64,000 nucleotides of DNA from an uncultured Bacillota bacterium (GCA_945867665.1 CAMBIR010000003.1:18757-82756); one strand, 5' to 3'; counted from the first letter of the stretch, positions 1,244 to 32,980 are shown. Made by a program: numbers and translations. Notes: a model not told the origin generated them from the sequence alone.

Positions 1244-1993
1244 CTATATCCTTGGGGTTAAAATCTCATATCCATCATCAGTAACCAAAACTGTATGCTC
1301 ATAATGAGCCGAAGGACTCCCATCTTCTGTTACAATTGTCCAATCATCATCTAATATTCCAACTGCAGAATCTCCCAAATTTAACATTGGTTCAATACAA
1401 ATAACCATCCCTGGCTTTAATTTTGGACCAGTTCCCTTCTTGCCATAATTAGGAACATCCGGATCCTCATGCATTTTCGTTCCAATTCCATGACCTATTA
1501 ATTCTTTAACAACCCCCAAATGATATCGATTCGCATAAGATTCTACCGCATGAGAAATATCTCCTATCCTGTTTCCTGGCTTTACCTCTTTTATTCCCTC
1601 ATATAAAGCCCGCTCAGTATGTTCCATCAAATATTTCTTCTCAGGACTAATACTTCCCACAGCATAAGTCCAAGCTGCATCTCCTTGATAACCATGATAA
1701 CCAATCACCATATCAATAGTCACAATATCCCCATCTTTTAACTTTCTTTTCCCAGGAATTCCATGTACAACCTCATCATTAACACTAATACATAACGTCG
1801 CTGGAAATCCCTCATATCCCTTGCAAGTAGGAACACCATCATGCTCTATAATAAATTCCTCAGCCAAACGATCTAATTCCTTAGTCGTTATCCCTGGCTT
1901 GATATAAGGCTTTAAATATTGATGAGTTAAACTAACCAAATATCCAGCCTGGCGCATAAGTTTAATTTCTTCTTCACTCTTAATTGTAATCAT
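1244..1993 (-). CDS. map: Methionine aminopeptidase type I
   Basis: The MetAP N-terminus 'MITIKSEEEIKLMRQAG' and metal-ligand His/Asp/Glu residues are present. The likely start is the internal Met at 1993, which has an upstream GGAAGAAG. The ORF track extends to 2026. Confidence 0.85.
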   Translation of the reverse strand: MITIKSEEEIKLMRQAGYLVSLTHQYLKPYIKPGITTKELDRLAEEFIIEHDGVPTCKGYEGFPATLCISVNDEVVHGIPGKRKLKDGDIVTIDMVIGYHGYQGDAAWTYAVGSISPEKKYLMEHTERALYEGIKEVKPGNRIGDISHAVESYANRYHLGVVKELIGHGIGTKMHEDPDVPNYGKKGTGPKLKPGMVICIEPMLNLGDSAVGILDDDWTIVTEDGSPSAHYEHTVLVTDDGYEILTPRI

Positions 1994-2147
1994 ATTATCA
2001 CTTCTTCCATCACCATTATAACACAAGTGTCTATTTATTAAAATACTTAAAAATCTTTTCTTTTTTTATCATAATTTCTACTCAAAAAAAGAAAATAAAA
2101 TTATAAAGAAACTAAATTTTATTTTCTTTATAATTTTATAATATTTC

Positions 2148-3281
2148 TCATTCTCCTTGCTCTATCTTTTCTACCTCTCGAAGAAAGAAATCATCAGTCA
2201 TTCCCGCAATAAAATCAATAACCATTCTCTTCTTTGAAGTATTTTCAAAGTATATTTCATCCTTACGATTTAAAAAATACACATAAATTAAACTATCCCT
2301 CTTTTGTTCTTCTAAATCAGATAAATACTGAAAATAAATTTTATTCATCCCAGCTTTATACCTTTCTTTATCTTCTAAAGAAATACTTTTAGCATAAATA
2401 AATTGATAATTAAAATTCTTCAAGCGAAGCAATGCTTGATAAACTTCATCACTCATTTTGATATATGGCTTCTGATAACTATTATCAATAATATCCGTAA
2501 CAATTGTATTAATAATCTCTCGGTTAGTACTACCTAATACCTTTGTAATATCATCAGGAATATCTTCTTCTTTAATATAACCAAGACGAATTGCGTCTTC
2601 AATATCCCTTCCTATATAACTAATAATATCACTAATTCTAACCACACATCCCTCCAAAGTCATCGGCCGACATTCCAATGTTTTTTTCAGATTATGATAA
2701 GCTTCTTCATATTCTTTTAAAAATTCCTTCTCATCTTTTTCTTGAGGAACATACTCATTAGATAAAATTTCTCCATTATGACACATAATTCCATCTAACA
2801 CCTGAATAGATAAATTTAAACCATGTCCTTTATTTTCAATATCCATATAATTTCTTACACTCTGAATATTATGGGCAAAATATTCCCCCAATTCCCTTCT
2901 AGAAATCTCATTTAATAAACTCTCCCCAACATGACCTAAAGGAGTATGCCCAATATCATGTCCAAGAGCAATTGCCTCAATCAAATCTGTATTCAAATTT
3001 AAAGCTCTACCTATCGTTCTAGCAATTTTACTAACAAATTGAACATGAACAATCCTCTTCGATACATGATCATTTTTAGAAAAAGAATAAACTTGTGTTT
3101 TATTTAAATACCTCGTATAACTCATTGCATAAATAATTCGGTCAACATCCCGAAAAAAAGGAGTCCGAATATCATCTTCTTCCATCACCAAACGAACTGC
3201 TTCATCACTTTTTGTAGCATAACAAGATAAATTATCATCAATACGGAAAAAATTTTTCTTTACTTCAAAAAAATACTTCAT
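2148..3281 (-). CDS. dgt: dGTP triphosphohydrolase-like HD-domain phosphohydrolase
   Basis: 377 aa with the HD motif 'LGHDIGHTPLGH' typical of Dgt-like dNTPases. Confidence 0.75.
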   Translation of the reverse strand: MKYFFEVKKNFFRIDDNLSCYATKSDEAVRLVMEEDDIRTPFFRDVDRIIYAMSYTRYLNKTQVYSFSKNDHVSKRIVHVQFVSKIARTIGRALNLNTDLIEAIALGHDIGHTPLGHVGESLLNEISRRELGEYFAHNIQSVRNYMDIENKGHGLNLSIQVLDGIMCHNGEILSNEYVPQEKDEKEFLKEYEEAYHNLKKTLECRPMTLEGCVVRISDIISYIGRDIEDAIRLGYIKEEDIPDDITKVLGSTNREIINTIVTDIIDNSYQKPYIKMSDEVYQALLRLKNFNYQFIYAKSISLEDKERYKAGMNKIYFQYLSDLEEQKRDSLIYVYFLNRKDEIYFENTSKKRMVIDFIAGMTDDFFLREVEKIEQGE

Positions 3282-3391: not shown

Positions 3392-4780
3392 TTACTTCGT
3401 ACTAACTTTCAAAGGACTTTCCTTTGTCCCCATTCCACTATATTTGAGCCCAGACTTCAGAACCACTATTGGGCGAAGGGAATTGCCGTTACTACCCGTG
3501 GCGAAACCTGAACTGTTATAGGAATACAGGATGCTGTTGGCATACGACCCCGAAGTGCCCAAGCCCCGTCCGCGCCACTTATAGTTAGTCGAAGAGGAAT
3601 AATAATAGTATCGTGATGCCATCCAATAATCAGAACTGCTACTCCCTGGTTTAGTGGCTACTCGTGTCCCTAAAACTGTATTAACTAAATCATAATCCGT
3701 AGTATATAATTCATCTCCTCCACCTTGACTCTCAACAGTACTACTTCCTGTTGAACTTGTCCATGGTGCTGGATTTGTAAATTTGGAAGTATCCGTAATA
3801 TATTCTGTCTGACCATTATACCCAAAATGCCTAGATGAAACAGTATAAGTACTATTTTCATATTGACTGGCAAGAACATTTAAATATCCAACAAAATTTT
3901 GATACCCTGTTTGTCCTTTAAAATAAACGTCTGTACTAGAGACATGTTCACTAATCATCTCTACTGTTCCATCATCATTAATACGAATTACTCGCCACAA
4001 ATTTAACTCTTTTGGATAAATCGTTTGACTAGATGTATATCCTGTCATTGTTGTATCCGTTGAATAAGAAGATTTGGTAGGCGTTAAAGAAACATAATCT
4101 CCTAGACTAATCATTCCACTAACATTCTCCGCTAAAGCATCAATCGCACATTGAACATCAGAACAATTAAGCCCTGTTTTCGAATTATCATAACTAAATC
4201 GACTAGCAATAACATCATTCGCCACCAATGCCCCATTATCAATACTATCAGTTGTACTATAAGCAGCAATCCCATCTATTTTTAATCTGGCACTAAAACT
4301 TTTATTGATTTCAGTATTTTGAACAGCCTCAGATATCCATACCCGAACATCAATATCTACACTTGTTTTGGGCAATAAAATAATATCACTTTTAATAATA
4401 TTATTACTACAATCACTAAGTTGTTTAGGATCTAGTTTCCCCACCTTTGTCATAATAAATTGATGATTGATTTCATCTGTAGCCGTTGTAGGTTCTAGTA
4501 TCACATTAAATTTATAAGCAACCGTTCCTGAATTTTTAACCGTTATTCGATAAGGAGTAATTGTAGGGATTCTTTGATTAGAAATTGGCCTAGATACATC
4601 TAAAGTAACATTACCCGCATCTTCTACAGTAACCACTAAACTTCCCAATTTATAAACATTAGCTTCCTGATCAACATCTGTAGAATTAAAAAGAGAATAG
4701 GTACTACCAATCATCAAAATAGATACTAATATAATAGAAATAACACTGGTAACAATTAATCTTTTCTTAGAATCCATCAC
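3392..4780 (-). CDS. DGR target protein 3, remote from the cassette; N-terminal signal/anchor and C-terminal variable domain
   Basis: 462 aa. The N-terminus 'KKRLIVTSVISIILVSILMIG' is hydrophobic. The C-terminal 230 aa are paralogous to ORFs 11915..12859 and 14939..15904. The 3' part (3471..3605) aligns to the TR at 13941..14075 with substitutions mostly at TR adenines. Confidence 0.8.
   Translation of the reverse strand: MMDSKKRLIVTSVISIILVSILMIGSTYSLFNSTDVDQEANVYKLGSLVVTVEDAGNVTLDVSRPISNQRIPTITPYRITVKNSGTVAYKFNVILEPTTATDEINHQFIMTKVGKLDPKQLSDCSNNIIKSDIILLPKTSVDIDVRVWISEAVQNTEINKSFSARLKIDGIAAYSTTDSIDNGALVANDVIASRFSYDNSKTGLNCSDVQCAIDALAENVSGMISLGDYVSLTPTKSSYSTDTTMTGYTSSQTIYPKELNLWRVIRINDDGTVEMISEHVSSTDVYFKGQTGYQNFVGYLNVLASQYENSTYTVSSRHFGYNGQTEYITDTSKFTNPAPWTSSTGSSTVESQGGGDELYTTDYDLVNTVLGTRVATKPGSSSSDYWMASRYYYYSSSTNYKWRGRGLGTSGSYANSILYSYNSSGFATGSNGNSLRPIVVLKSGLKYSGMGTKESPLKVSTK
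3471..3605 (-). other. DGR variable region VR3
   Basis: About 135 bp homologous to the TR. The pattern of substitutions differs from VR1 and VR2. The flanking IMH-like block 'gagcccagacttcagaaccactat' is shared with VR1 and VR2. Confidence 0.75.
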
Positions 4781-4787
4781 ACACCTC

Positions 4788-5507
4788 CTACTTACTAAAA
4801 TAATATAAACTTCCCATCAATATGCCCATTACCAAAATTAAAAGTAAAAATGTTTGAGCATCAATCATTCCTTCATTATTTTTTCTTACTAAAGTCTTTG
4901 GCTTTATTTGACTCACTTCTCTCTTTTGTCCTCTTTCCAATTGACTCACCACACGTTCAACTAAAACATTGAGTGGTTGATTTTCTAAATCAAGTTCCTT
5001 ATCTTGAAATAAAGTACTGATTTGTCTTTCAATCTCTAGATAAGAAACATTTACAAAAGAATTAGCCCCATCCTGTAAATAAGTTCTAGTTATTCCATCT
5101 TGACTCTCTGAAATCAAATTCGTTTTAAAATAATTTTCAAGAAAAACTTGTTCTTTTCGTTTCCGAATAATTTTTGAATCATTTGAAAAAGAAAAACTAC
5201 TAACCAATTCTTGACTTCTCTTCTCTTCTTCATCATTAAGTGGTACAAATTGAAGAGAAAGTTCCTTGATATTCTTAAGCCTCTTAATTGTATCTTTATA
5301 AGCCTTTAAATAAAAAGTTTTATAATTAGGATTATTCAAAATACTACTAGAAATAACTAAAGTTGCCTCTCCACTATCTTTTCTTAGAGAAACTTCAAAA
5401 TCAACCCCAGAAAAAAAACCACGATACAAAATAATATCCTCATCTTCTAGTATAATCTCCATCTTACCACTCCTCATTATCTTAATATAAGAGTACCATA
5501 AATACAA
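4788..5507 (-). CDS. Hypothetical protein with a C-terminal TM anchor
   Basis: 239 aa ORF with hydrophobic C-terminus 'FLLLILVMGILMGSLYYF'. It ends 7 bp upstream of target3 on the same strand. The true start may be the internal 'MEIILEDED'. Confidence 0.4.
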   Translation of the reverse strand: MYLWYSYIKIMRSGKMEIILEDEDIILYRGFFSGVDFEVSLRKDSGEATLVISSSILNNPNYKTFYLKAYKDTIKRLKNIKELSLQFVPLNDEEEKRSQELVSSFSFSNDSKIIRKRKEQVFLENYFKTNLISESQDGITRTYLQDGANSFVNVSYLEIERQISTLFQDKELDLENQPLNVLVERVVSQLERGQKREVSQIKPKTLVRKNNEGMIDAQTFLLLILVMGILMGSLYYFSK

Positions 5508-7764: not shown

Positions 7765-9177
7765 ATGATATTTTTAAATACACTAGATGCCTGCTCTAAT
7801 TATGAAATCTTAAGAATCGTTCGCGTAATCATGAATGTTTTTCGCTTAATCTGTTTCATCGCCCCAATTCTATTAATCATAATGCTCTCCATTGATTTTG
7901 GAAAAACAGTAATGTCTGGAGGAAATATTGAAGATAATAAAGTTCTATCTTTATTCATTAAAAGAATTATAATGTGTATGGCAATTTTTTTAGTCCCAAT
8001 TTTTATTACTGTCGCGATGAATATAACAGGACTTAGTACAGCCAAACAATATAAAGATTGCCTAAAAAATTATGAAAATGCAAACAATTATAAAGATAAT
8101 ACCATAACAAATAAAGGAAATTCAAGTAATAATGGAAACAATAATAACAAAGGAAATTCAAATGGAAGTGAAGGCTCGAATTCATCTTCTATCAAAAAAA
8201 TTACTTTAAACAAAACCAATGCCACAATTACTGAATATTCTGATAATGTTTCTAGTCGAGGAAAAAATTATACCATTAACAAAACAAAATTATCCATTAA
8301 AGAATCAGCTGCAAAAGGAAAAATAAAATGGAGCATCACTGACGGAAAGACTGTCGCCAAAGTAGATAACAAAGGAAAAGTAACCGCTCTAAGTGGAGGA
8401 ACAGCTACAGTAAGAGCAGAACTAAAAGATAATTCAAAAGTCTATGCCGAAGCTAAAATAACTGTGGCTCATGGTCTTTATGAAAATGTAAAGACGACTC
8501 AAAATGTTACTGTAAAAGATATCTATACCGGAAAGTCGATTACATTAACGAAAGGAAAAAAAGTAGTTCTCCTTGGAGAATTAAAATGCAAACGACAAGA
8601 TTATAAAAACCAAACATTTAATATTAGAATAGATAAAAATACAGTTGCTAAAATTTCAGGTAAATATCTAAAATTTGTAAGTTATTATGTTGATGATGGA
8701 TATACAAATGAAGTATACGAAAATTTTATTAATGAACAAGGATTCACCAGCAAAACAAACTACTTATTTTGGGTAAATGTTGGTACCCAAAGATTAATGT
8801 TATTTAAAAAAGAAAATTCCAAATGGAAAATCATAGAAAACTTTAAAACCTCAACAGGAGACTCTGAAGGAAAAAACACAAATGATAGCGGTGGCTCAAC
8901 AATAACTAAATTTGACCTAGAAGTACAAGATTTTAATAGTGAATCATCTGTTGGAAGAGCAATTCATGTTCGCTACGAAACAACCAAAAAAAATCATGGC
9001 AACACAATGCATGTAGGCAGCTTACCGAAAAATACTGATGGCGGTAATTCTTCTGAAAATCAACCATCTTCACATGGATGTCCCCATTTATCAAAAAGTT
9101 TTCGAGATAAACTTTATAATACTTATAATGAAAAAAGTAAAAATAAATTAATCAATTCTAAAGTAATTTATTATTAA
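7765..9177 (+). CDS. Membrane-anchored protein with Asn/Gly/Ser-rich linker, Big_2 Ig-like domain and C-terminal L,D-transpeptidase-like domain
   Basis: N-terminal TMs. Low-complexity stretch 'NSSNNGNNNNKGNSNGSEGSNSSS'. Big_2-like segment '...KTVAKVDNKGKVTALSGGTATVRAEL'. C-terminal 'H…SHGCPHLS' resembles the YkuD catalytic His/Cys motif. Confidence 0.55.
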   Translation: MIFLNTLDACSNYEILRIVRVIMNVFRLICFIAPILLIIMLSIDFGKTVMSGGNIEDNKVLSLFIKRIIMCMAIFLVPIFITVAMNITGLSTAKQYKDCLKNYENANNYKDNTITNKGNSSNNGNNNNKGNSNGSEGSNSSSIKKITLNKTNATITEYSDNVSSRGKNYTINKTKLSIKESAAKGKIKWSITDGKTVAKVDNKGKVTALSGGTATVRAELKDNSKVYAEAKITVAHGLYENVKTTQNVTVKDIYTGKSITLTKGKKVVLLGELKCKRQDYKNQTFNIRIDKNTVAKISGKYLKFVSYYVDDGYTNEVYENFINEQGFTSKTNYLFWVNVGTQRLMLFKKENSKWKIIENFKTSTGDSEGKNTNDSGGSTITKFDLEVQDFNSESSVGRAIHVRYETTKKNHGNTMHVGSLPKNTDGGNSSENQPSSHGCPHLSKSFRDKLYNTYNEKSKNKLINSKVIYY

Positions 9178-10976: not shown

Positions 10977-11500
10977 TATTCTTCCTCTTTTAATATCTCT
11001 TTTAATAAATTTATTACCCAATAAAGAACATTTTCTTTATTCTTTTCCCTTGATTTATCTGTTACTGTTAATACTTTATCAACATAAATATTCAAAACTT
11101 TATCATAAACACTAATATAAACAACACGATTATCCCCAAATTGATTAAATCTATCTTCTCGATTGAATTTACCCGTAATTCCAATTCCATATCTACTACC
11201 AGTATAATTTACAATGCTACTACTCATTTCATGAGCAACTTCCATACTATAAACACTATACTTCTTAATTACCTCTTCTGATACTCCAAATTTTATCTTA
11301 TAAAAATTAGAATACGTTACAGCACCAAAAGAAAATACTTCACTAGCACCTTCTACATTAGTAATTGCATTCGCAATAAAACCACCAGTTGCAGACTCCA
11401 TCGTTGATATTGTCTCATTTCTTAAAGTTAAAATTTGAACAATCTCTTCCATCTTACCACTTTCCTTATCCAGAACAATCTTATCACGAAAAATAAGCAT
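10976..11500 (-). CDS. CinA C-terminal domain protein (nicotinamide-nucleotide amidohydrolase PncC-like)
   Basis: 174 aa. 'LTLRNETISTMESATGGFIANAITNVEGAS' matches the CinA-C family. Confidence 0.7.
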   Translation of the reverse strand: MLIFRDKIVLDKESGKMEEIVQILTLRNETISTMESATGGFIANAITNVEGASEVFSFGAVTYSNFYKIKFGVSEEVIKKYSVYSMEVAHEMSSSIVNYTGSRYGIGITGKFNREDRFNQFGDNRVVYISVYDKVLNIYVDKVLTVTDKSREKNKENVLYWVINLLKEILKEEE

Positions 11501-11880: not shown

Positions 11881-11892
11881 AATAAAATATAT

Positions 11893-12530
11893 GAGATATC
11901 CTCCACTTCCTACTTTACTTTATCTCCATCGGATAGTCCTCTGTACCTACTCCCTCATATTGGAGCCCAGACTTCAGAACCACTATCGGGCGAAGAGAGC
12001 TGCTGCTACCGCCCGTGTTGAAATTCGAACTATAATAGCTATACAGGTTGTAGTTGCTAATTGACCCAGAAGCGAGCACCTTCCGTCCGCCCCAGCGATA
12101 GTCAGTCGAGGAGGAATAATTATAGTATCGTGATGCTATCCAATAAGAAGCACCACTACCCCCTGGTTTAGCGGCTACTCTTGTCCCTAAAACTGTATTG
12201 ATTAAATTATAATCTGTAGTGTATAAAGTATCTCCTCCACCTTGACTCTCAACAGTACTACTTCCAGTTGAACTTGTCCATGGTGCTGGATTTGTAAATT
12301 TGGAAGTATCGGTAATATATTCCGTTTGCCCATTATATCCAAAATATCGAGAACCTTTAGTATAAGCACTATTTTCATACTGACTTGCAAGAACATTTAA
12401 GTATCCAACTAGGTTTTGATACCCTGTTTGTCCTCTAAAATAAACCGCTACACTAGAGACATGTTCACTAATCATCTCTACTGTTCCATCATCATTTAAT
12501 TTAATCACTCGCCATAAATTTAATTCTTGT
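11893..12530. repeat. Direct repeat copy A, about 640 bp and 100% identical to 14917..15554 (3' portion of target gene including VR and IMH)
   Basis: Read base by base, with identity confirmed at several blocks and divergence beginning upstream of about 12530. Confidence 0.75.
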
Positions 12531-12859
12531 GGATTAATCGTTTGCGTACTAGTATATCCAGTTTTAGAAGCATCCGTTGTATAGCTAGACTTGGTTGGTG
12601 TCATCTTGACATAGTCTCCTAAAGCAAGAGTATTTTTTTTCTTTAAACAAACATATCCATCTGGACATGACTTACCATATAATTCATCCAAAGCATCTTG
12701 AACATTAGTTGAACTAAGACCACTTTTACTATTATCATAAGTTAAATCTACTCCATTACCAACGTATGTCGTTGCTGCATATACTCCCGTTACCGATAAG
12801 AATATTCCAATTACTAAACCAACTAGTATCTTATAATTATAACTTTTCTTTTTCTTCAT
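11915..12859 (-). CDS. DGR target protein 1, secreted or anchored, with C-terminal variable domain
   Basis: 314 aa. Signal peptide 'MKKKKSYNYKILVGLVIGIFLSVTGVYA'. The C-terminal 230 aa are identical to ORF 14939..15904. The 3' VR (11988..12122) matches the TR except mainly at TR-adenine positions. Confidence 0.85.
   Translation of the reverse strand: MKKKKSYNYKILVGLVIGIFLSVTGVYAATTYVGNGVDLTYDNSKSGLSSTNVQDALDELYGKSCPDGYVCLKKKNTLALGDYVKMTPTKSSYTTDASKTGYTSTQTINPQELNLWRVIKLNDDGTVEMISEHVSSVAVYFRGQTGYQNLVGYLNVLASQYENSAYTKGSRYFGYNGQTEYITDTSKFTNPAPWTSSTGSSTVESQGGGDTLYTTDYNLINTVLGTRVAAKPGGSGASYWIASRYYNYSSSTDYRWGGRKVLASGSISNYNLYSYYSSNFNTGGSSSSLRPIVVLKSGLQYEGVGTEDYPMEIK
11988..12122 (-). other. DGR variable region VR1
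   Basis: Aligns with the TR at 13941..14075. On the plus strand TR 'gagagTTgTTgTTaTTgTTcgtg' corresponds to VR 'gagagCTgCTgCTaCCgCCcgtg', so the substitutions fall on coding-strand adenines. Residues encoded there: TR N/N/N/N/N give VR D/R/G/K/L and so on. Confidence 0.8.
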
Positions 12860-13805
12860 TTCTAATCATTCCTTTATTTAGATTTTTATAATTAATATAA
12901 CTTGCTAAATAACTATTTAATTTTATCTTTCCAATTTCATATAAATACTTTTTATATTTTAATTTTCTTCTCTTGTCTCTATATTTAGAATTTCTATTAT
13001 CTTTATCTCTTCCTAGAAAAATAATATTATTGGTATTCTTATAAATTCTAGTTTTATTATTTAACTCTAATCTTTCTTTTCTTAAAAATTCTTTTATCTT
13101 ATCTAAACAATACTTTAAATATTGTTTATCTTGATGAAACAAAATAAAATCATCTTGATATCTTACATAATATTTTATCTTTAACTCTTCTTTAATATAA
13201 TGATCTAAATCATTTAAATAAAATATTCCTAATATTTGACTACTCATAAATCCTATACTAAGTGTAGTATCACTATCTAATATTTTATCTATTATCATTA
13301 AAGCATCTTTATCTTTTATTTTTCTTTTCAATTTATTCTTTAATACTCTAATATCAATACTAGCAAAATAAGAATGAATATCACATTTTAAAAGATAATA
13401 AGTACCATATTTTCTCTCCATCATATTACGATACTGATAATATAATTTTAGAGCATAAGATGTTCCTTTATTTGTTCTAGAAGCACAATTTGCATCAATT
13501 AAACAAGGAATTAAAGCATCATATAAAATATATCGACTCACCAAATGATTCACTAATTTATCATACATACTTTGACTAACAATTCTTCTTTTCTTTGGAT
13601 CGTATATGTAAAAAACATGAAACTTTCCTACTTCATAAGTTTTATTTTTTAAATCATGATATACCCGACTAATATAAATTGCTTTAAAATTCTTAAATTG
13701 TTGTACTCTATTCTTATTTTTTGTATTTCTACATATCTCATCAAAACATCTCTCTATATTTTCAAATTTATATATATTTTGATATAAATTATTTACTCTT
13801 TTCAT
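12837..13805 (-). CDS. DGR reverse transcriptase
   Basis: 322 aa. RT motifs 'IGFMSSQILGIFYLNDLDHY' (DGR-type [IVL]GxxxSQ in place of QGxxxSP) and 'YVRYQDDFILF' (YxDD box). The size is typical for DGR RTs. It overlaps the start of target1 by 23 nt. Confidence 0.9.
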   Translation of the reverse strand: MKRVNNLYQNIYKFENIERCFDEICRNTKNKNRVQQFKNFKAIYISRVYHDLKNKTYEVGKFHVFYIYDPKKRRIVSQSMYDKLVNHLVSRYILYDALIPCLIDANCASRTNKGTSYALKLYYQYRNMMERKYGTYYLLKCDIHSYFASIDIRVLKNKLKRKIKDKDALMIIDKILDSDTTLSIGFMSSQILGIFYLNDLDHYIKEELKIKYYVRYQDDFILFHQDKQYLKYCLDKIKEFLRKERLELNNKTRIYKNTNNIIFLGRDKDNRNSKYRDKRRKLKYKKYLYEIGKIKLNSYLASYINYKNLNKGMIRNEEKEKL

Positions 13806-13929
13806 ATATCCCCTTTCATTTTCATTACTAACAGATATATTTTTTATATTGTTTATAGAATAATCTATTGGACTTAGTCTATTTCTTCATTATCTCTAAT
13901 ATAAGTCTTTCTTATATCACCTCAGTTTG
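13806..13929 (-). ncRNA. DGR TR–RT spacer, presumed structured part of the template RNA
   Basis: A 124-nt non-coding gap between the TR 3' end and the RT start codon. In characterised DGRs this spacer is part of the RNA that primes cDNA synthesis. The assignment here is inferred from position alone. Confidence 0.4.
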
Positions 13930-14095
13930 AAGAAGTTCCTGGGCGAAGAGAGTTGTTGTTATTGTTCGTGTTGAAACTTGAACTATTATAGTTATACAGG
14001 TTGTTGTTGCTAGTCGACCCAGAAGTGTTCACATTCCGTCCGTTCCAGTTATAGTTAGTCGAAGAGGAATAATCATAACAACATCTCTTTCCAAA
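13930..14095 (-). repeat. DGR template repeat (TR)
   Basis: Non-coding copy of the target 3' region lying between avd and the RT. Its residual reading frame is Asn-rich, 'STNYNWNGRNVNTSGSTSNNNLYNYNSSSFNTNNNNNSLRP', with 13 or more AAC codons at positions that vary in VR1, VR2 and VR3. The 3'-end block 'cttcgcccagg' (IMH*) differs from the VR-side IMH. Confidence 0.85.
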
Positions 14096-14099
14096 CCAA

Positions 14100-14444
14100 C
14101 TAAGCCCGAGATGACTTTCGCCATCCAATAACATACTTTAATAAATAATCCAAATTCTCCCCAAATTTTAAATATCTTTTGGCATTAATAATGTGTTTAT
14201 CGTAACAAACATTAACCAAATAATCTAAATATTTAATATAAGAAATAATTTTATCTTGAATATCGATTCTTTTATTGATATCAAATGTTGTATTTGCTTC
14301 ATAAGCAATCTTTAACATTTGATAAGAAGTAAACATAATTTCTCTTTTTATTTCTATTTCTTTATGAGGAAAATTTGTTAAATACTGATCAAAACTATCA
14401 ATTAATCTCTTAATCAATTCTGTTATATAAAATTTATCTTTCAT
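14100..14444 (-). CDS. avd: DGR accessory variability determinant (Avd; four-helix-bundle, 23S rRNA IVS protein family)
   Basis: 114 aa. 'LIDSFDQYLTNFPHKEIEIKREIMFTSYQMLKIAYEAN … YLDYLVNVCYDK' fits the Avd consensus (FPK.E.…R.…). It lies immediately upstream of the TR. Confidence 0.7.
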   Translation of the reverse strand: MKDKFYITELIKRLIDSFDQYLTNFPHKEIEIKREIMFTSYQMLKIAYEANTTFDINKRIDIQDKIISYIKYLDYLVNVCYDKHIINAKRYLKFGENLDYLLKYVIGWRKSSRA

Positions 14445-14883
14445 ATAATAACTTCTCTACTTCTTCAATTTTATCATCATGCTTTAAAAGATAGACCTTA
14501 ATTCTATCAATTCTATTTAATTTATCTAAATAATCATTTGCTTTAGAAGAAACCTCTTTATACTTATTTTTCTTTTTATAATTCATCTTATCCATCTCTT
14601 CATAATTATGATTCTTATCAATCGAAATATAATTAATATTTCTACTCTCTAAATTTGAAATAACTCTATTATAAGAAACCAAAGGAAAACCACAATTCTT
14701 ATCTCCACTAGATAATATCTTAATTTTATATTGAAATAAATAAGAAATGATATTGGCATCATCATTATAACATTCATAAAAAGTACCAATTTTTAATAAT
14801 ACTACATATTCTGGAAATAATTCTTTTAAATTATTTGCCATATTTACTACTGCCATATAAACCTTCTTTCTTTTTTTAACCAA
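14434..14883 (-). CDS. MutS domain-I-like (mismatch-recognition domain) small protein; putative DGR accessory factor
   Basis: 149 aa. 'FPEYVVLLKIGTFYECYNDDANI…KNCGFPLVSYNRVISNLESRNINYISI' aligns to MutS domain I ('PILLFYRMGDFYELFYDDA…[23 protein letters not shown]') and keeps the Phe-x-Glu mismatch-contact motif ('FYE'). It overlaps the avd start by 11 nt. Confidence 0.6.
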   Translation of the reverse strand: MVKKRKKVYMAVVNMANNLKELFPEYVVLLKIGTFYECYNDDANIISYLFQYKIKILSSGDKNCGFPLVSYNRVISNLESRNINYISIDKNHNYEEMDKMNYKKKNKYKEVSSKANDYLDKLNRIDRIKVYLLKHDDKIEEVEKLLYER

Positions 14884-14916
14884 AGCCCATCTCAGGAACG
14901 ACCTTAGGCCGTTCTT

Positions 14917-15554
14917 GAGATATCCTCCACTTCCTACTTTACTTTATCTCCATCGGATAGTCCTCTGTACCTACTCCCTCATATTGGAGCCCAGACTTCA
15001 GAACCACTATCGGGCGAAGAGAGCTGCTGCTACCGCCCGTGTTGAAATTCGAACTATAATAGCTATACAGGTTGTAGTTGCTAATTGACCCAGAAGCGAG
15101 CACCTTCCGTCCGCCCCAGCGATAGTCAGTCGAGGAGGAATAATTATAGTATCGTGATGCTATCCAATAAGAAGCACCACTACCCCCTGGTTTAGCGGCT
15201 ACTCTTGTCCCTAAAACTGTATTGATTAAATTATAATCTGTAGTGTATAAAGTATCTCCTCCACCTTGACTCTCAACAGTACTACTTCCAGTTGAACTTG
15301 TCCATGGTGCTGGATTTGTAAATTTGGAAGTATCGGTAATATATTCCGTTTGCCCATTATATCCAAAATATCGAGAACCTTTAGTATAAGCACTATTTTC
15401 ATACTGACTTGCAAGAACATTTAAGTATCCAACTAGGTTTTGATACCCTGTTTGTCCTCTAAAATAAACCGCTACACTAGAGACATGTTCACTAATCATC
15501 TCTACTGTTCCATCATCATTTAATTTAATCACTCGCCATAAATTTAATTCTTGT
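14917..15554. repeat. Direct repeat copy B (identical to 11893..12530)
   Basis: See copy A. Confidence 0.75.
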
Positions 15555-15904
15555 GGTTTAATTGTTTGCGTACTCGTATATCCTGTTTTAGAAGTATCTG
15601 TTGTATAGCTAGACTTGGTAGGTGTCATCTTAACATAGTCTCCTAAAGCAAGGGTACTTTTCTTTTGTAAACAAACATAACCATCAGGGCAACTAGTACC
15701 ATCTCCATATACCTTCTTATATTTATCTGAAAGTTCATCAACTGCTCCTTGTACATCAGCACTAGATAAGTTACTATTTTCATTATCATAAAAAACATCT
15801 TCTGCTCTATATTTATTTACTGCCCATACACTAATGATAGGAATTAATATTCCTATCATTAAACCAATGAATAATTTATAATTCTTATTTTTTAATATTC
15901 GCAT
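14939..15904 (-). CDS. DGR target protein 2, secreted or anchored, upstream of the cassette
   Basis: 321 aa. N-terminal 'MRILKNKNYKLFIGLMIGILIPIISVWA'. The C-terminal domain and VR are identical to target1. Confidence 0.85.
   Translation of the reverse strand: MRILKNKNYKLFIGLMIGILIPIISVWAVNKYRAEDVFYDNENSNLSSADVQGAVDELSDKYKKVYGDGTSCPDGYVCLQKKSTLALGDYVKMTPTKSSYTTDTSKTGYTSTQTIKPQELNLWRVIKLNDDGTVEMISEHVSSVAVYFRGQTGYQNLVGYLNVLASQYENSAYTKGSRYFGYNGQTEYITDTSKFTNPAPWTSSTGSSTVESQGGGDTLYTTDYNLINTVLGTRVAAKPGGSGASYWIASRYYNYSSSTDYRWGGRKVLASGSISNYNLYSYYSSNFNTGGSSSSLRPIVVLKSGLQYEGVGTEDYPMEIK
15012..15146 (-). other. DGR variable region VR2 (identical to VR1)
   Basis: Offset by 3024 bp from VR1 and the same sequence throughout. 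Confidence 0.8.
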
Positions 15905-16501: not shown

Positions 16502-17221
16502 ATGAAACAAAATATTTTTGAAAAAATAGAAACCATTTTAAAGAAAAGTATGATAACTTTAGGACTAATTCTCCTATTATTAACTTGGGGACTAATTCCA
16601 ATTATTATAAGCTCTATATTAAAAATTGACTATCAAAGTATGAACGCTATCTTAAAAACAATCATTTCTTTTTTTAATGATTTATGTTTAATTTTTATTT
16701 TAATTGGTATCTATCATAAAACATTTTTTAGAGATTTTAAAAATTACTTTGAGACCAGAGATATTTTAAAAAATATTTTTACTTCTCTTAAATATTGGTT
16801 ACTTGGATTAAGCATTATGGTAATTAGTAATAGTATTATTACAATAATCACTAATGGAACATTAGCCGCCAATGAAGAGGCAGTTAGAAATCTAATTGAT
16901 ACCCATCCTCTTTATATGGCCTTTCAATTAATTATCTACGCCCCTCTAACTGAAGAGTTAATTTTTAGAAAAAGTATTAGAGAAATTACCAATAATAAAG
17001 CAATCTATATTCTCCTAACTGGTCTTATTTTTGGAGGAATGCATGTCATCTCTTCCATCCAATCAGCAAAAGATTTACTTTATTTAATTCCTTATTGTTC
17101 CCTAGGATTTACCTTTGGATATTTATATACTAAAACCGATAATATTTTTTCTACCATAACAGCCCATGCCACACATAATACCCTAGCTTTAATTCTTTAT
17201 TTAATGCAGGTGATATCATGA
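16502..17221 (+). CDS. CPBP-family (CAAX/Abi) intramembrane metalloprotease
   Basis: 'EELIFR' and 'FGGMHV…H' motifs within a multi-TM protein. Confidence 0.7.
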   Translation: MKQNIFEKIETILKKSMITLGLILLLLTWGLIPIIISSILKIDYQSMNAILKTIISFFNDLCLIFILIGIYHKTFFRDFKNYFETRDILKNIFTSLKYWLLGLSIMVISNSIITIITNGTLAANEEAVRNLIDTHPLYMAFQLIIYAPLTEELIFRKSIREITNNKAIYILLTGLIFGGMHVISSIQSAKDLLYLIPYCSLGFTFGYLYTKTDNIFSTITAHATHNTLALILYLMQVIS

Positions 17222-18045
17222 AAAAATTATTAAGTACAATTTTAAGTATCATGCTAATTTTCTTCTTAATTCTACTATACAGTCGCTTTGTAGGAACAAT
17301 CGGTCTAGAAACCAATGAATTTTCGATAAAAACAAATTTAAATGATAATTTTAATGGCTTAAAAATAATTCAATTTTCTGATTTACATTATAAAAAAGTA
17401 ATCACTGAAAAAAGAATTAAAGAACTAATAAATGAAATCAATAAAAATAAACCAGATATTGTCTTCTTTACTGGAGACTTACTAGATAAAGATTATAAAC
17501 TAGAAAATAAAGACATTAATTTTTTAATAACAGAATTAAAAAAAATAAAAACAACCTATGGAATTTACGCCATTATGGGAGATAATGATTATTCTAATGA
17601 AGAAATATTAAAAAATATCTATCTTCAAAGTAACATCACCTTACTAAACAATGAATCTATTTATATTTATAATGAATTTAATGATAAAATAATCCTCCAA
17701 GGATTTGGTAGTTATTTAAAAAATTTTGACTTAAATAAAACCATCTCTTCCCTAGAAGAAGATAACACTACTTATAAAATATCCCTAGTACATGAACCTG
17801 ATGCAATAAATGATATTATAAAGCAAACGAATTCTCCATCGCTTATTTTAGCAGGACATTCTTTAAATGGTTCAATCAATATTCCTATTATTAAAACTTT
17901 TTTACTCCCTAACGGAGCAAAAAAATTTAAAGCAAATAAACAAAATAAAAATATTTATATTTCTAATGGAATCGGTGTAAATAATATTAATTTTAGATTA
18001 TTTAATACCCCTTCTATAAATTTATATCGTTTGTCAAACAAATAA
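17218..18045 (+). CDS. Calcineurin-like metallophosphoesterase
   Basis: 'FSDLHY', 'GDLLD' and 'GDND' motifs. N-terminal TM. Confidence 0.7.
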   Translation: MKKLLSTILSIMLIFFLILLYSRFVGTIGLETNEFSIKTNLNDNFNGLKIIQFSDLHYKKVITEKRIKELINEINKNKPDIVFFTGDLLDKDYKLENKDINFLITELKKIKTTYGIYAIMGDNDYSNEEILKNIYLQSNITLLNNESIYIYNEFNDKIILQGFGSYLKNFDLNKTISSLEEDNTTYKISLVHEPDAINDIIKQTNSPSLILAGHSLNGSINIPIIKTFLLPNGAKKFKANKQNKNIYISNGIGVNNINFRLFNTPSINLYRLSNK

Positions 18046-28236: not shown

Positions 28237-31200
28237 TTAAACATTAATTTTTTCTAATCTTAACCCAACTTCAAATTCATTAATTTTCTCTAACGTACTA
28301 TCGTCACTTACCCTCTCCATCTTTAAAGCAAGTGTTTCATCACAAATAAACTTAATATAATCACTTATCTTCGCACTATATAAATCACTAGACGAATAAT
28401 AAATACAAATCCTATCTGCAATATCAAAGCCCATACTCTTTCTTAGATTCTGAATCTTAGAAATTGTCTCTCTAGCAAGACCTTCATTAATCAAATCATC
28501 GGTTAATTCTAAATCAAGAATAACAATCAAATTCCCATTTACACAGACATTAAATCCTTCCTTAGATTCAATTCTTTTCTCAATCAATTCTTCAGTTACC
28601 TGATATTCAGTCCCATTTAGTGAAATAGTTAAATTCCCATGCGCCAACTTCTCTAAATCTTCTTTAGTAATAGTAGTTAAATAATCACTGAATGCTTTCA
28701 TATCCTTACCAAATACCTTACCCGCTACTCTGAAATTAGGTTTATAAGTAATATTCATATATAAGTTAACATCATCAACATATAATACTTCTTTAACATT
28801 CAACTCTTCTTTAATTAATACTTCAAGTCCGAAAAGTTTTTCTTTAAGAGAAGAAGATAACATTACACTCTTAATTGGTTGTCTAACTTTTATCTTAGAC
28901 TCTTCCCTTATATTTCTTCCCATCGTAATTAAGTCTCTAACCAAATCCATTTTATATTCTAGCCCTTCATTAATTAATTCACTAGAGCAAATAGGAAAAT
29001 CAGCTAAATGAACGGATTTTTTCTTTGTTAATTTTGTATAGATTTCTTCTGTTAAATAAGGAATAATCGGAGCACATAAACGGCATAATCCTTCCATTAC
29101 TTCATAAGTAGTCATATAAACACTTCTTTTACTAGTATTCATATCGCTTCCCCAAAAACGATTTCGATTTCTTCTAATATACCAATTCGATAAATCTTCA
29201 GAAACAAAATTAGTAATCTCTCTAACGACCAAATTTAAATCATATGCCTCATAAAATTCTCTTACCTTTTTAATTAGATGATTGTATTTACTTAAAAGCC
29301 ACTTATCAATCTCTTCTCTATCCTCATACTTAACCTTGCAGTCTTCAATATTAATCTTGTCAATATTTGCATACGTTTGAAAGAATGTATAAGTATTCCT
29401 AAATGGATTAAAGAACTTACTATGAACTTCTCTTACTCCAGCCTCAGAAAACTTTAAAGGCGTCCAAACAGGAGATGTGTATAACATATACCACCTGATA
29501 TTATCTGCCCCATACTTCTCCATCATCTCTACAGGATCAACAATATTTCCAACAGACTTACTCATCTTTTTACCAAATTCATCCAACATCATATCATTAA
29601 CAACAACGTTTTTAAATGAACTTTCTCCCGAAATAATCGTAGAAATAACAAGTAAAACATAGAACCAACCTCTAGTTTGATCAAGTCCTTCCGCAATAAA
29701 ATCAGCAGGAAATTGACTTTTAAATAATTCTTGATTTTCAAAAGGATAATGAAATTGGGCATAAGGCATCGAACCAGAATCAAACCAAACATCTAAAACA
29801 TCTTTAACACGAGTCATTTCTTTACCACAAGAACATTTTAAATGAATTTGATCAACATAAGGACGATGTAGTTCCAACTCTCTTACATTAACATCCTCAA
29901 CCACATTTTCTTGCAACTCATCTAGAGAACCAATAACCTTTCTTTTACCACAAGAACATTCCCAAACAGGAAGTGGACAACCCCAATAACGATTTCTAGA
30001 AATTCCCCAATCAACTATATTCTCAAGCCAATTTCCAAAACGTTTTTCTCCAACATAAGCGGGATACCAATGAATTTTTTTATTTGCCTGGATAATTTTA
30101 TCTTTATATTCAGTAGTTTTAATATACCAAGCAGGTTTAGGATAGCTAATTAAAGGACTCTTACATCTCCAACAATGTGGATAATCATGCTCTATTTTAA
30201 TTTTTTTAAATAACTTATCATTTTCTTTTAACCATTTAATAATATCAATTTCAAGCTCAGGATCCGTAACAAGGCGACCCTCCCATGGACCAGTCGTATA
30301 TCTTCCATCAAGTCCAACTGGATTCACAAAACCAATCCCATTTTGAGAACAAACACGGTTATCATCAGCACCAAACGCAGGAGCAATATGAACAATACCT
30401 GTACCATCACTATCCGTTACATAATGATCCGCAATAACTTCATGACATTTCCCTTCAACATGAACAAAAGGCATTAATTGTTCATATTTTATTCCAACCA
30501 AATCACTACCTTTAAAAGTATCAATTACTTCATAATCTTCCCCAAGTACTCGTTCAGCAAGACTTTCTGCGACAATAAATTGATATCCCTTAGAACTAGC
30601 CTTAATATAAGTCATATCAGGATTAACACAAATCGCAACATTCGCCATCAAAGTCCAAGGCGTTGTCGTCCAAGCTAAGAAATATTCATCAGCATCTACT
30701 CGTTTTAAAGGAACAATAACGGTATTCACACTAGTTTTAGTATACCCTTGTGATACTTCAAATTGAGATAATTCTGTACCACATCTAGGACAATACCATA
30801 GCACTTTATTCCCGTGATATAAAAGCCCCTTCTCATCCATTTGTTTAATAATCCACCACTCTGACTCAATATAATCATTAGAACAAGTAATATAAGGATT
30901 TTTACAATCAATAAATTGCCCCATCATATCAGTAATATGATTTACTTCATTAATATTTGTCGCCGTTGCCTTATTACACTCACGACAAAAAGCATCTACA
31001 CCAAATTTTTCAATATCCGCTTTACCAGTAAATCCCAACTTTTTTTCAACATTTACTTCAATAGGAAGGCCATGCGTATCAAGACCAATCTTTCTTAATA
31101 CTCTATATCCATTCATAACCTTATACTTACAAAAAGAATCTTTAATCGTCTTCGCAAAAACATGATGAATACCAGGTTTAGCATTTGCATAAATAGGACC

Positions 31201-31353
31201 ATCATAAAAAACAAAATCCTTCTTACCTTCACGATTTTTTATGGTTTCATTTAAAATATCTTCTTTTTTCCAAGTATCTAGTATACTTTTTTCAACTTCC
31301 TTAACCTCTCTTTTATCTAAGCTCTCGTACATTTCAATCATCCTTCTTTCCAA
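28237..31353 (-). CDS. ileS: Isoleucine--tRNA ligase
   Basis: 1038 aa. 'HHVF' HIGH-like motif and 'KMSKS' ('KMSKSVGN') are present. Confidence 0.95.
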   Translation of the reverse strand: MERRMIEMYESLDKREVKEVEKSILDTWKKEDILNETIKNREGKKDFVFYDGPIYANAKPGIHHVFAKTIKDSFCKYKVMNGYRVLRKIGLDTHGLPIEVNVEKKLGFTGKADIEKFGVDAFCRECNKATATNINEVNHITDMMGQFIDCKNPYITCSNDYIESEWWIIKQMDEKGLLYHGNKVLWYCPRCGTELSQFEVSQGYTKTSVNTVIVPLKRVDADEYFLAWTTTPWTLMANVAICVNPDMTYIKASSKGYQFIVAESLAERVLGEDYEVIDTFKGSDLVGIKYEQLMPFVHVEGKCHEVIADHYVTDSDGTGIVHIAPAFGADDNRVCSQNGIGFVNPVGLDGRYTTGPWEGRLVTDPELEIDIIKWLKENDKLFKKIKIEHDYPHCWRCKSPLISYPKPAWYIKTTEYKDKIIQANKKIHWYPAYVGEKRFGNWLENIVDWGISRNRYWGCPLPVWECSCGKRKVIGSLDELQENVVEDVNVRELELHRPYVDQIHLKCSCGKEMTRVKDVLDVWFDSGSMPYAQFHYPFENQELFKSQFPADFIAEGLDQTRGWFYVLLVISTIISGESSFKNVVVNDMMLDEFGKKMSKSVGNIVDPVEMMEKYGADNIRWYMLYTSPVWTPLKFSEAGVREVHSKFFNPFRNTYTFFQTYANIDKINIEDCKVKYEDREEIDKWLLSKYNHLIKKVREFYEAYDLNLVVREITNFVSEDLSNWYIRRNRNRFWGSDMNTSKRSVYMTTYEVMEGLCRLCAPIIPYLTEEIYTKLTKKKSVHLADFPICSSELINEGLEYKMDLVRDLITMGRNIREESKIKVRQPIKSVMLSSSLKEKLFGLEVLIKEELNVKEVLYVDDVNLYMNITYKPNFRVAGKVFGKDMKAFSDYLTTITKEDLEKLAHGNLTISLNGTEYQVTEELIEKRIESKEGFNVCVNGNLIVILDLELTDDLINEGLARETISKIQNLRKSMGFDIADRICIYYSSSDLYSAKISDYIKFICDETLALKMERVSDDSTLEKINEFEVGLRLEKINV

Positions 31354-31359
31354 AATAAA

Positions 31360-31620
31360 AACACAAAAACTTCTAAATTTAAGGACGAGATAACACGCGG
31401 TACCACCTTAATTCACAAAATTTTTGTGCACTTCATTCACATAACGGGATCTAACCCGGACACTTTCTACTTAAGTTCAAAAGTTCACATTCCAGAGTGA
31501 TTCTTATTTAACATTTATTATCTATCTCTCACCATTAATAGACTCTCTTTTAAATAAACCCTTTAAATAACGTCTCCTTCAATTGCTTTAACAAATTTAA
31601 ACTAATTATAAAAAAAATAG
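31360..31620 (-). promoter_or_regulatory. T-box riboswitch leader of ileS
   Basis: The minus-strand read contains the T-box consensus 'AATTAAGGTGGTACCGCG' (31383..31400 on the plus strand as its reverse complement) about 30 nt before the ileS RBS. Confidence 0.7.
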
Positions 31621-32015
31621 AAATAAAAGTCAATAGAAGCATTTTACTTTTCTAAATAATTGATAATTTAAAAGATAAACAAAGAATACTTAAACTTTTT
31701 TCTATAAAAATACATATCACTATAAATAATAATAAAAATTGCCGTTACAATAATAGAATTCAATAATTTTTCATTCCCAATTAAACTTTTCAATATTATC
31801 ATTAAATTCAGATAACTCTTTCAATACAAGAAGAAATGAAAAAGATAATACCTAAATAAAGACTTATAAATGTTGCTATTTCTTCCAAATCAATAATATA
31901 AGTTCTCGTTCTAGCCTCTAAAGTCGTATAATTAATATACCCATTCTTTTTCATAGCAAGTTCTTTATCCTCAACCGTTTTTTCTGCTCAGTATTATTCA
32001 CTTTTCTTAGTATTT

Positions 32016-32609
32016 TTAAGATATATTTTCTAGTATTTCACCAACAAAAATAGTAATATACCCAACAATAAAGCAAAAATAGTACTGCCTTACATAATCT
32101 AGGTAAAATTCATTCCCATTATTGATATAGCCATCATGAAAAATATTATGTAAAAAGTTTTGATCTAAATAAAAACGAGAAAAGATAAATAGAACAAACA
32201 AACTAAAAAGAATAACCAAGTTATCATACCAACTATCCTTTTTCTTAATAACCATTGAAAAAACAAAATAACTAAAAATAACCATTACATATAATAAAGA
32301 TAACCAATCATAATCAAAATCTCTCATTAAAATAGTTTCTTTAATAATTTTAAAAATAATAAGAAAAAAAATAACAATATGATAAATCATAAAAGCAATA
32401 TTTACTTTTTTACTTTTCTTTAAAAGAAAAAGAATTTGCCCTCCTACCGTAAATGGCAACAATAAAGTAAAAATAGTAAAAATATCTTGCAATATTATTC
32501 CATTGATTCCTATTTTAATCAAGTTCAAATCAGTCACATAAAAGAAAAAGAAAGAAACAAAAACCACAAGAAACAAAAGAATATTCTTAAAAAACACCTT
32601 ACCATTCAT
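32016..32609 (-). CDS. Hypothetical integral membrane protein
   Basis: 197 aa with about five TM segments. Confidence 0.35.
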   Translation of the reverse strand: MNGKVFFKNILLFLVVFVSFFFFYVTDLNLIKIGINGIILQDIFTIFTLLLPFTVGGQILFLLKKSKKVNIAFMIYHIVIFFLIIFKIIKETILMRDFDYDWLSLLYVMVIFSYFVFSMVIKKKDSWYDNLVILFSLFVLFIFSRFYLDQNFLHNIFHDGYINNGNEFYLDYVRQYYFCFIVGYITIFVGEILENIS

Positions 32610-32980
32610 TTAATCTCACCTACCTTAATCACGTCATTTAGTATTTTATTATAAATTTTATATTGATAATGAATAATTGTTAATGGATTAGGAAGATAAC
32701 CATTATAAGGAAGCCTAAATTGATAAGAATAAGGTTGCTCCAAATAAGTAAACACTTCAAAATAACTTTTCCTTAAATCAGATAAATTTTCATTAATATA
32801 AATTAGATTATCACCTAAAGTATTATCTTTTTTTAGTAAAATTTTATATATTTCCTTTTCATCTACATTACCATCCGTAAGAAAATTATAATCACTATAG
32901 AACTGAATAAATTTTTTAAATGTATATTTTTTATGATTCAAATAATAATCTACTTTCCCTTTTTCTAACATATTCTTCAT
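32606..32980 (-). CDS. Hypothetical protein
   Basis: 124 aa ORF overlapping the downstream gene by 4 nt. Confidence 0.35.
   Translation of the reverse strand: MKNMLEKGKVDYYLNHKKYTFKKFIQFYSDYNFLTDGNVDEKEIYKILLKKDNTLGDNLIYINENLSDLRKSYFEVFTYLEQPYSYQFRLPYNGYLPNPLTIIHYQYKIYNKILNDVIKVGEIK

Follow-up and report, generated by a model that had tools for sequence, protein, structure and literature searches.

A candidate non-adjacent DGR target gene with a hypervariable repeat in uncultured human-gut Bacilli

The DGR cassette, its flanking targets and a remote target-like gene

We analysed a 64,000-nt stretch of DNA from an uncultured Bacillota bacterium (GCA_945867665.1 CAMBIR010000003.1:18757-82756), hereafter the window, with a G+C content of 30.7%. 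The window contains an intact DGR, in which a cassette of MSL, Avd, TR and RT lies beside target genes T1 and T2. All parts are on the − strand, in the coding order T2, MSL (MutS-domain-I-like), Avd, TR, RT, T1 (Table 1). The motifs SIGFMSSQ (IGxxxSQ) and YQDD can be read off the RT translation; in DGR-type RTs, the IGxxxSQ motif replaces the QG motif of group II introns and YxDD is present. Matches of the RT to other NCBIfam RT classes are all well under their cut-offs, and 1954 proteins are related to it at E ≤ 1e-30. The Avd-like ORF matches NF033474 from end to end, yet under the curated cut-off. AAC or AAT accounts for 16 of the 45 codons of the TR.

Table 1. Features of the DGR and of the remote target locus (window coordinates)
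Feature	Position	Strand	Description
map	1244..2026		on far side of T3 from cassette
HD/dgt-like gene	2148..3281		on far side of T3 from cassette
T3 (target 3)	3392..4780	−	ORF, 462 aa, GTG start
IMH-like block of VR3	3446..3469	−	directly 3′ of VR3, 24/24 copy
VR3	3471..3607	−	137-nt gap-free TR match, 77% identity
T3 upstream neighbour	4788..5507	−	conserved ORF, 239 aa (224 aa as called in orthologous contigs)
T1 (target 1)	11915..12859	−	314 aa, directly downstream of RT
IMH of VR1	11963..11986	−	exact 24-mer copy
VR1	11988..12124	−	repeat family copy in T1
DGR reverse transcriptase (RT)	12837..13805	−	322 aa, RVT_1 E 1.5e-12
Hairpin in TR-RT spacer	13899..13917	−	7-bp stem, ATATAAG-loop-CTTATAT, centroid fold
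TR	13941..14077	−	non-coding gap between avd and RT gene
Avd-like accessory gene	14100..14444	−	114 aa, NF033474 DivGenRetAVD E 2.3e-5
MSL gene (MutS-domain-I-like)	14434..14883	−	149 aa, PF01624 MutS_I E 3.6e-8
T2 (target 2)	14939..15904	−	321 aa, upstream of cassette
IMH of VR2	14987..15010	−	exact 24-mer copy
VR2	15012..15148	−	repeat family copy in T2

A third gene of the target family, T3, stands with a conserved upstream ORF about 7 kb beyond the cassette. The genes between T3 and the cassette comprise nadK, a cinA/pncC-like gene, an HTH regulator, a Big_2 protein, a PedC-like gene, a DUF308 gene and small ORFs. A previous reading of the locus, made from the sequence only, had counted map and dgt among the intervening housekeeping genes; nadK does lie there, but map and the HD/dgt-like gene are beyond T3. 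Its distance of 8.5 kb is the spacing of VR1 and VR3, whereas TR and VR3 are 10.5 kb apart.

The T3 ORF is intact and carries its VR at the 3′ end. The product is composed of an N-terminal signal or anchor, a T3-specific domain of ~200 aa and a C-terminal variable-protein domain of ~240 aa that is common to T1 and T2. In a BLASTP comparison, T3 and T1 are 69% identical across 275 aa (E 4e-135), so that the C-terminal ~270 aa are in common, as the sequence-only reading had proposed for a somewhat shorter segment; the peptides that it quoted are present. Full-length T3 orthologs (n = 33) occur in gut Bacilli metagenomes, whereas a record of precisely this T3 sequence was looked for and not found. 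The orthologs begin one codon downstream (MDSKK..., 461 aa), and therefore the ATG at 4777 is probably the true start of T3. The related contigs carry labels of uncultured Bacilli MAGs, obtained from metagenomes of the human gut that include Hadza samples. The conserved ORF adjoins T3 on its upstream side in every orthologous locus and has no family match in a Pfam search; its product may be an operon partner of T3. Searches of T3 and T1 against Pfam and NCBIfam returned no family at E ≤ 0.01.

Mismatch pattern of VR3 and the identity of VR1 and VR2

In the window, the repeat occurs in four copies without gaps, namely VR3, VR1, TR and VR2; no additional VR, TR or IMH copies were found in the 64 kb. 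Each VR is accompanied by one exact copy of the 24-mer GAGCCCAGACTTCAGAACCACTAT (at 3446, 11963 and 14987), of which none is expected by chance in 64 kb. On the coding strand, the IMH-like block reads ATAGTGGTTCTGAAGTCTGGGCTC, and the VR ends just before it in the G+C-rich CTTCGCCC. Past CTTCGCCC, the TR runs into a different, only partly similar sequence, which fits the expectation for an IMH*. Past the IMH-like block, the sequence of T3 diverges from that of T1 and T2.

TR and VR3 differ at 30 positions of a 133-nt core, 20 of them at TR adenines and 10 elsewhere. Specifically, mismatches affect 45% of the adenines (20/44) and 12% of the other bases (10/85; Fisher p = 4.2e-5). In the control flank, the 420 nt just upstream of the VR compared between T3 and T1, differences show no base bias (14% at A versus 12% at non-A, p = 0.54). 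The IMH is thus not degraded at VR3, being identical at 24/24 positions, and the differences are not evenly spread over the bases; the proposed IMH-like 3′ block and the many altered adenines of VR3 are both borne out, with the repeat now ending at 3607. The non-adenine mismatch rate of VR3, ~12% per site, equals the drift rate of the T3/T1 flank. Six of the ten non-adenine mismatches are synonymous and at the third codon position, and six of the ten (repeat positions 44, 56, 64, 92, 125 and 128) carry the base present in the TR alleles of two sister species, L006 and L009. By the rule of Wu et al., TR and VR of a non-adjacent target differ at TR adenines only, with minor exceptions (PMC5758913); set against this rule, VR3 has a strong adenine bias, yet 33% of its mismatches fall outside the adenines.

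Against the TR, VR1 is mismatched at 19 adenines and at 5 other bases. At 10 sites that are mutated in VR1, VR3 retains the TR adenine, indicating that VR3 is not a copy of the present VR1 or VR2 and is, as had been claimed, a distinct state. We compared adenine and non-adenine mismatches at the loci where the cassette and T3 are on the same contig, which are the window, L004 and L006 (another species). The cassette-adjacent VR has 19 adenine and 5 non-adenine mismatches in the window and 21 and 1 in L004, and the two cassette-adjacent VRs of L006 have 15 and 1, and 17 and 4. The corresponding counts for the remote VR3 are 20 and 10, 18 and 9, and 18 and 6. The remote copy, with more non-adenine mismatches at all three loci, is consistently less clean, and at the loci examined VR3 is reset more rarely than the cassette-adjacent copies.

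T1 and T2 are 100% identical along their final ~640 nt, VRs included, so that only two VR states, rather than three, are present in the window. The same 124,891-nt contig was publicly deposited a second time (ENA ERZ10544616, NODE_54_length_124891; L016); this deposit has 56 differences from the window in 20,945 nt and is otherwise identical. The 56 differences are one set of 28 changes, present in T1 and T2 alike; 24 of the 28 are inside the VR, and 18 of these are at TR adenines. The resulting variant b of VR1/VR2 has 18 adenine mismatches and 1 non-adenine mismatch to the unchanged TR. VR3, like the TR, is the same in both deposits. Because the deposits differ only in the repeated segment, and in the same way in both copies, we attribute the pattern to repeat collapse with a popped bubble. 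The identity of VR1 and VR2 is thus probably made by the assembler and not biological; as comparators, the role given to them in the sequence-only reading, they do differ from VR3 but are probably collapsed themselves. Identical VRs in tandem targets were flagged as a likely assembly error by Wu et al. 2018 (PMC5758913). We therefore infer two or more VR1/VR2 states in the sample. Variant b (18/1) and VR1 of L004 (21/1) may be taken as evidence, from their mismatch patterns, of recent DGR activity.

Strain variation, TR alleles and cassette turnover

Among eight close strains, pairwise nucleotide difference in T3 is 0–3% in the N-terminal half, 9–20% in the C-terminal domain and 33–40% in the VR. 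Variable columns of the strain VR3s are enriched at TR adenines (41/47, versus 42/90 at other positions; p = 2.7e-6). The comparison across strains that had been suggested thus yields an A-site excess, but one that is confounded by recombination: VR3 is hypervariable within the species, and retrohoming is not the sole source of this variation. In particular, window and L004 differ by ~1% in the background, while the entire 3′ 500 nt of T3, including sequence upstream of the VR, is ~20% diverged. In T3 of L011, L012, L013 and L015, a T1/T2-type C-terminal tail, GVGTEDYPMEISTS, replaces G[MVI]GTKESPLKVSTK. In L011–L013, an additional gene directly follows T3; that of L012 encodes a 318-aa target and itself has a VR and an IMH. 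The swapped tails and added genes indicate that paralog recombination moves whole 3′ ends, VR included, and VR3 diversity has a second, demonstrated source in recombination with the cassette-adjacent paralogs.

We considered pure DGR activity as the cause of VR3 hypervariability among strains, and this is ruled out by the T1/T2-type tails of four strains, the extra genes of L011–L013 and the ~20% divergence of the 3′ end between window and L004. The native T3 tail is kept with four distinct VR3 states (window, L001-type, L004 and L014). Further observations come from individual contigs. In L006, VR1 and VR3 have their 5′ 60 nt in common, including nine A-to-N changes; the middle segment of VR3 in L004, TCGGGGTCTTTGA, is that of the L017-type TR and not of its own TR; and a second IMH type, ATACTTACTYTGAAATCTGGGCTC, is found in VR3 of L014 and in the extra target of L012.

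Several TR alleles exist among close relatives (window/L004, L017, L006 and L009), and they differ at exactly those non-A sites where VR3 copies deviate. Of the TR alleles recovered, the window's own leaves 10 non-A mismatches in the window VR3 and the others 12–14. One alternative allele (L017, L006 or L009) as the source of all non-A mismatches of VR3 was considered and rejected, the own TR giving the best fit; only a mosaic TR would fit VR3 better.

The cassette itself is missing from some close relatives and sits elsewhere in others. A cassette-less lineage of the same species is represented by seven contigs from at least three studies (L001–L003 and L020–L023), in which the T2-like gene adjoins the T1-like gene and no MSL, Avd, TR or RT was found between them. 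In this lineage, VR3 is 100% identical across the seven contigs and the second VR varies by 1 nt. L001 and L020 nevertheless have 33 differences in the first VR, and 25 of these fall on TR adenines. In L017–L019, whose housekeeping genes are 93–97% identical to those of the window, a T2-cassette-T1 unit is located elsewhere on the chromosome, beside ileS, at a site that is empty in the window. In L007 and L008, from more distant species, T1-like and T3 genes are kept with no cassette within 10 kb, and the IMH peptide RPIV[VT]LKSGL is encoded with many synonymous changes. These synonymous changes at loci with no cassette within 10 kb, set against 24/24 identity among the three targets of the window, argue for constraint on the IMH at the DNA level, or concerted evolution, where a cassette is present.

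Origin of VR3, protein fold and comparison with known systems

The TR homology, the adenine-biased mismatches and the intact IMH of T3 are, at the sequence level, those of a genuine DGR-type target gene. The most likely reading, to which we assign a probability of roughly 0.6, is that T3 is a non-adjacent target of the resident DGR and that VR3 has been rewritten in trans. The TR would first be transcribed; the RT, with Avd and probably MSL, would copy it into cDNA, misincorporating opposite template adenines; and the cDNA would replace any VR that has a VR-side IMH and TR homology. Since these two features are found at VR3, it would be rewritable in trans across the 10.5 kb that separate it from the TR. 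Targeting in trans, as the sequence-only reading had put it, agrees with the TR homology, adenine bias and IMH, but rewriting in situ at T3 is inferred, and whole T3 3′ ends are swapped in sister strains. Its derivation of the VR states from one TR holds to the extent that the own TR is the best fit, although 10 of the 30 mismatches in VR3 are non-adenine and six of them match sister TR alleles. With non-A mismatches at the drift rate and six of ten shared with sister TR alleles, the last writing of VR3 would date far back or have used another TR allele, and the data indicate that the window VR3 is probably not freshly written but goes back to an old event, to another TR allele or to recombination over part of its length.

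Possible too, though we consider it rather unlikely, is a second-hand or fossil VR3. Its adenine pattern would have been made in a cassette-adjacent target, or before the duplication that formed T3, and would have come to T3 through duplication, gene conversion or recombination between strains, with DGR rewriting in situ having occurred never or long ago. Such an origin would account for a non-A mismatch rate (12%) equal to T3/T1 flank divergence, for the six non-A mismatches shared with sister-species TR alleles and for the raised divergence along the entire C-terminal domain. The transfers seen in relatives also speak for it, namely the L017-like segment TCGGGGTCTTTGA of the L004 VR3, the T1/T2-type tails in L011–L013 and L015, the genes added after T3 (an extra target in L012, additional genes in L011 and L013) and the 5′ 60 nt with nine A-to-N changes common to VR1 and VR3 in L006, as does the absence of any VR3 change between the two contig deposits. 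On the other hand, the IMH is kept at 24/24 in T3 and T3-specific sequence is back right after it, so that any conversion tract would need to end with the VR and IMH; the strains with a native tail have four VR3 states; and no known feature of DGR retrohoming would stop an IMH that is intact and 10 kb off from being used (PMC5758913).

Service of T3 by another DGR cassette or TR allele outside the 64-kb window, in place of the resident TR, appears improbable. TR alleles of close relatives do differ at the deviating non-A sites of VR3, the cassette occupies a different chromosomal site in L017–L019, a second IMH type (ATACTTACTYTGAAATCTGGGCTC) exists in the L014 VR3 and the extra L012 target, and the first VR of the cassette-less lineage still differs between strains at 25 adenine sites. 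In the window, however, the own TR is the best fit to VR3 (10 versus 12–14 non-A mismatches), a single TR copy is present, the L017 cassette site is empty, and the IMH of VR3 is of the VR1/VR2 type. The remaining explanation, simple paralog drift, in which VR3 was shaped by ordinary mutation of a duplicated gene, has a negligible probability. The match between non-A mismatch rate and flank divergence is as it would predict, but the base-specific mismatch test (45% versus 12%, p = 4e-5, with an unbiased flank, p = 0.54) excludes it, and the TR is non-coding, AAY-rich and beside the RT, and the VR is hypervariable between strains on a 0–3% background. The preferred reading thus remains rewriting of VR3 in trans by the resident DGR.

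The structural model of the C-terminal domain (pLDDT 91) is composed of two helices and a beta-hairpin-rich C-terminus, in which the VR forms long beta-hairpins. A Foldseek search of the model against the PDB gave nothing under E 0.26, and two profiles of the target family found no sequence match among PDB chains. Against BFVD, the best and sole near-significant match is a DUF6273 protein (E 2.3e-3, TM 0.41–0.47). PF19789 is matched by 1 of 61 family members (E 1.2e-3), and sequence profiles do not place T3, T1 or T2 there. In gut phages, DUF6273 is documented as a C-type-lectin-like domain that DGRs target and that carries the VR C-terminally (PMC10743442, PMC11792537). T3 probably encodes a ligand-binding protein, secreted or at the surface, that displays hypervariable beta-hairpins on a putative DUF6273/C-type-lectin-like domain.

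The N-terminal part of T3 weakly matches TIGR04088 (15 of 22 orthologs, best E 0.009, under the cut-off) and Peptidase_M73 (E 0.003–0.07), and its low-confidence model (pLDDT 25–60) matches the TasA fibre 8aur_A in Foldseek (E 1.9e-4). A TasA/camelysin-like, SipW-dependent N-terminal domain may be suggested as a lead only. A wider and doubtful proposal is that T3 might be a fibre or surface protein of the SipW-dependent, TasA/camelysin-like kind, with a distal DUF6273/lectin-like domain that the DGR hypermutates; remote VRs might then preserve, like fossils, how TR alleles have turned over and how the cassette has moved or been lost between strains. If true, T3 would be a diversifiable adhesive fibre in an uncultured lineage of gut Bacilli.

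Both non-adjacent DGR targets and MutS-like accessory genes have been documented before, and T3 adds one ordinary case. Wu et al. 2018 surveyed 372 DGRs and list 73 non-adjacent targets for 45 of them, from a few kb to Mb away; they describe the label itself as arbitrary under 10 kb (PMC5758913). The locus resembles remote-target DGRs in its one RT/TR cassette, its chromosomal, not phage-borne, position and its extra target with C-terminal VR and IMH. It differs from the remote targets of Wu et al. in the distance of only 10.5 kb and in VR3 non-adenine mismatches far beyond the assignment rule. The DGR of Treponema denticola has seven remote targets (PMC5758913, PMC4891356) and an HRDC accessory, whereas the accessory set here is Avd and MSL. 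An MSL accessory class (Architecture D) and variable 5′ mutagenesis boundaries were described by Wu et al. 2018 (PMC5758913). As in Architecture D, for example in the Legionella pneumophila DGR, a small MutS-domain-I protein lies beside avd-TR-RT, with Avd present (PMC5758913); unlike there, the hosts are uncultured low-GC gut Bacilli, and targets lie on both sides of the cassette with one more non-adjacent. The VR is at the C-terminal end of a globular domain and in beta-hairpins, as in tentaclins (PMC10743442) and Faecalibacterium prophage targets (PMC11792537), but in contrast to the DUF6273 phage targets the genes here are chromosomal; their products have a signal peptide or membrane anchor and do not belong to a phage tail or capsid.

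The T3 locus is a well-documented example, from uncultured human-gut Bacilli, of a DGR that has a target on either side of the cassette and a third, non-adjacent one; the target family is not assigned to any Pfam entry. Of greater use than the example itself are the comparative data. Four points bear on the automated calling of DGRs from metagenomes: the non-adenine excess of remote VRs, paralog recombination that moves VRs, cassette absence or relocation in close relatives, and identical tandem VRs, which can be made by the assembler. DGR-calling pipelines usually trust assembled VRs and usually ignore remote targets, the latter a limitation stated by Roux et al. 2021.

With the archetypal DGR of Bordetella phage BPP-1 (mtd/avd/TR/brt), the locus shares adenine-specific flow from TR to VR, Avd, a C-terminal VR and, after a G+C-rich VR end, an IMH distinct from the TR-side IMH*. 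Unlike BPP-1, it has multiple targets, an MSL gene and no detectable cruciform downstream of the VR, and the target is without sequence- or Foldseek-detectable similarity to any solved structure, Mtd included. A hairpin or cruciform downstream of the IMH is needed in BPP-1 but is not known to be universal among DGRs. Here, folding the DNA in the 100 nt past each VR gave no significant hairpin or cruciform (z-scores −0.7 and +0.1). On the TR side, the IMH*-like region lies directly 5′ of the 7-bp hairpin in the TR-RT spacer, the stem of which is kept in L006, L009 and L017 with differing loops.

Identical T1 and T2 ends and the position of the cassette

The last ~640 nt of T1 and T2, the two target genes that flank the cassette, are 100% identical, with the VR lying within the identical segment (window 11892..12530 versus 14916..15554). 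A second deposit of the same contig (L016; ENA ERZ10544616; 124,891 nt) differs from the window solely in a set of 28 changes, which is present in both the T1 and the T2 copy. This pattern resembles a repeat that collapsed during assembly, with alternative branches of the bubble, and the true VR1 and VR2 therefore probably differ from each other.

In three close relatives of the window (L017–L019), the housekeeping genes of which are 93–97% identical to those of the window, the T2-cassette-T1 unit adjoins ileS, not cinA/nadK (L017 7897..11891; also L018 and L019), and its RT is 90% identical. At the counterpart of this L017 site, the window has no such unit, so the unit either relocates or passes between genomes by exchange.

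A same-species lineage carries adjacent T2-like and T1-like genes, with the entire MSL-Avd-TR-RT core absent (L001 561..2550; L020 550..2548; also L002 and L003). In this lineage, VR3, the variable repeat of the non-adjacent target T3, is nucleotide-identical across seven contigs from several studies, while the first VR has 33 differing sites between L001 and L020, 25 of them at TR adenines.

Probable exchange among targets, and a second IMH variant

In a locus of another species (L006; VRs at 3658..3794 and 11174..11310), the remote VR3 has its 5′ 60 nt in common with the VR next to the cassette. The common segment includes nine A-to-N changes and the 3′ halves differ, as expected for partial 3′-anchored retrohoming or gene conversion of the 5′ half.

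Some strains possess a further gene directly after T3 (L012 4031..4987; L011 2641..3171; L013 1890..2453), which in L012 encodes a target of 318 aa that carries a VR (4772..4908) and an IMH of its own. In these three strains the C-terminal tail of T3 is of the T1/T2 type, suggesting that T3 has recombined with the tandem targets.

In addition, a second IMH variant, ATACTTACTYTGAAATCTGGGCTC (peptide ILTLKSGL), follows some VRs (L014 2120..2149; L012 4909..4938). These VRs match the window-type TR badly, with 15 non-A mismatches in L014 VR3 and 21 in the extra target of L012.

The T3 N-terminal part, a Big_2-domain protein and a spacer hairpin

The N-terminal part of T3 shows weak likeness to a SipW-type signal, camelysin and TasA fibre. 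L017 encodes a 222-aa homologue of this part alone (17074..17742; 74% nucleotide identity), without the variable C-terminal domain. The Big_2-domain protein is kept in every syntenic locus. The TR-RT spacer hairpin, which may belong to the DGR RNA structure for priming, is kept with differing loops in the L006, L009 and L017 cassettes.

Positions of features in the window
Feature	Position	Strand	Location
T3 N-terminal part	4140..4780	-	T3
Big_2-domain protein, 470 aa, N/S/G-rich low-complexity linker	7765..9177	+	between T3 and cassette
7-bp hairpin (ATATAAG / CTTATAT)	13899..13917	-	TR-RT spacer
Counterpart of L017 cassette site	28242..33632
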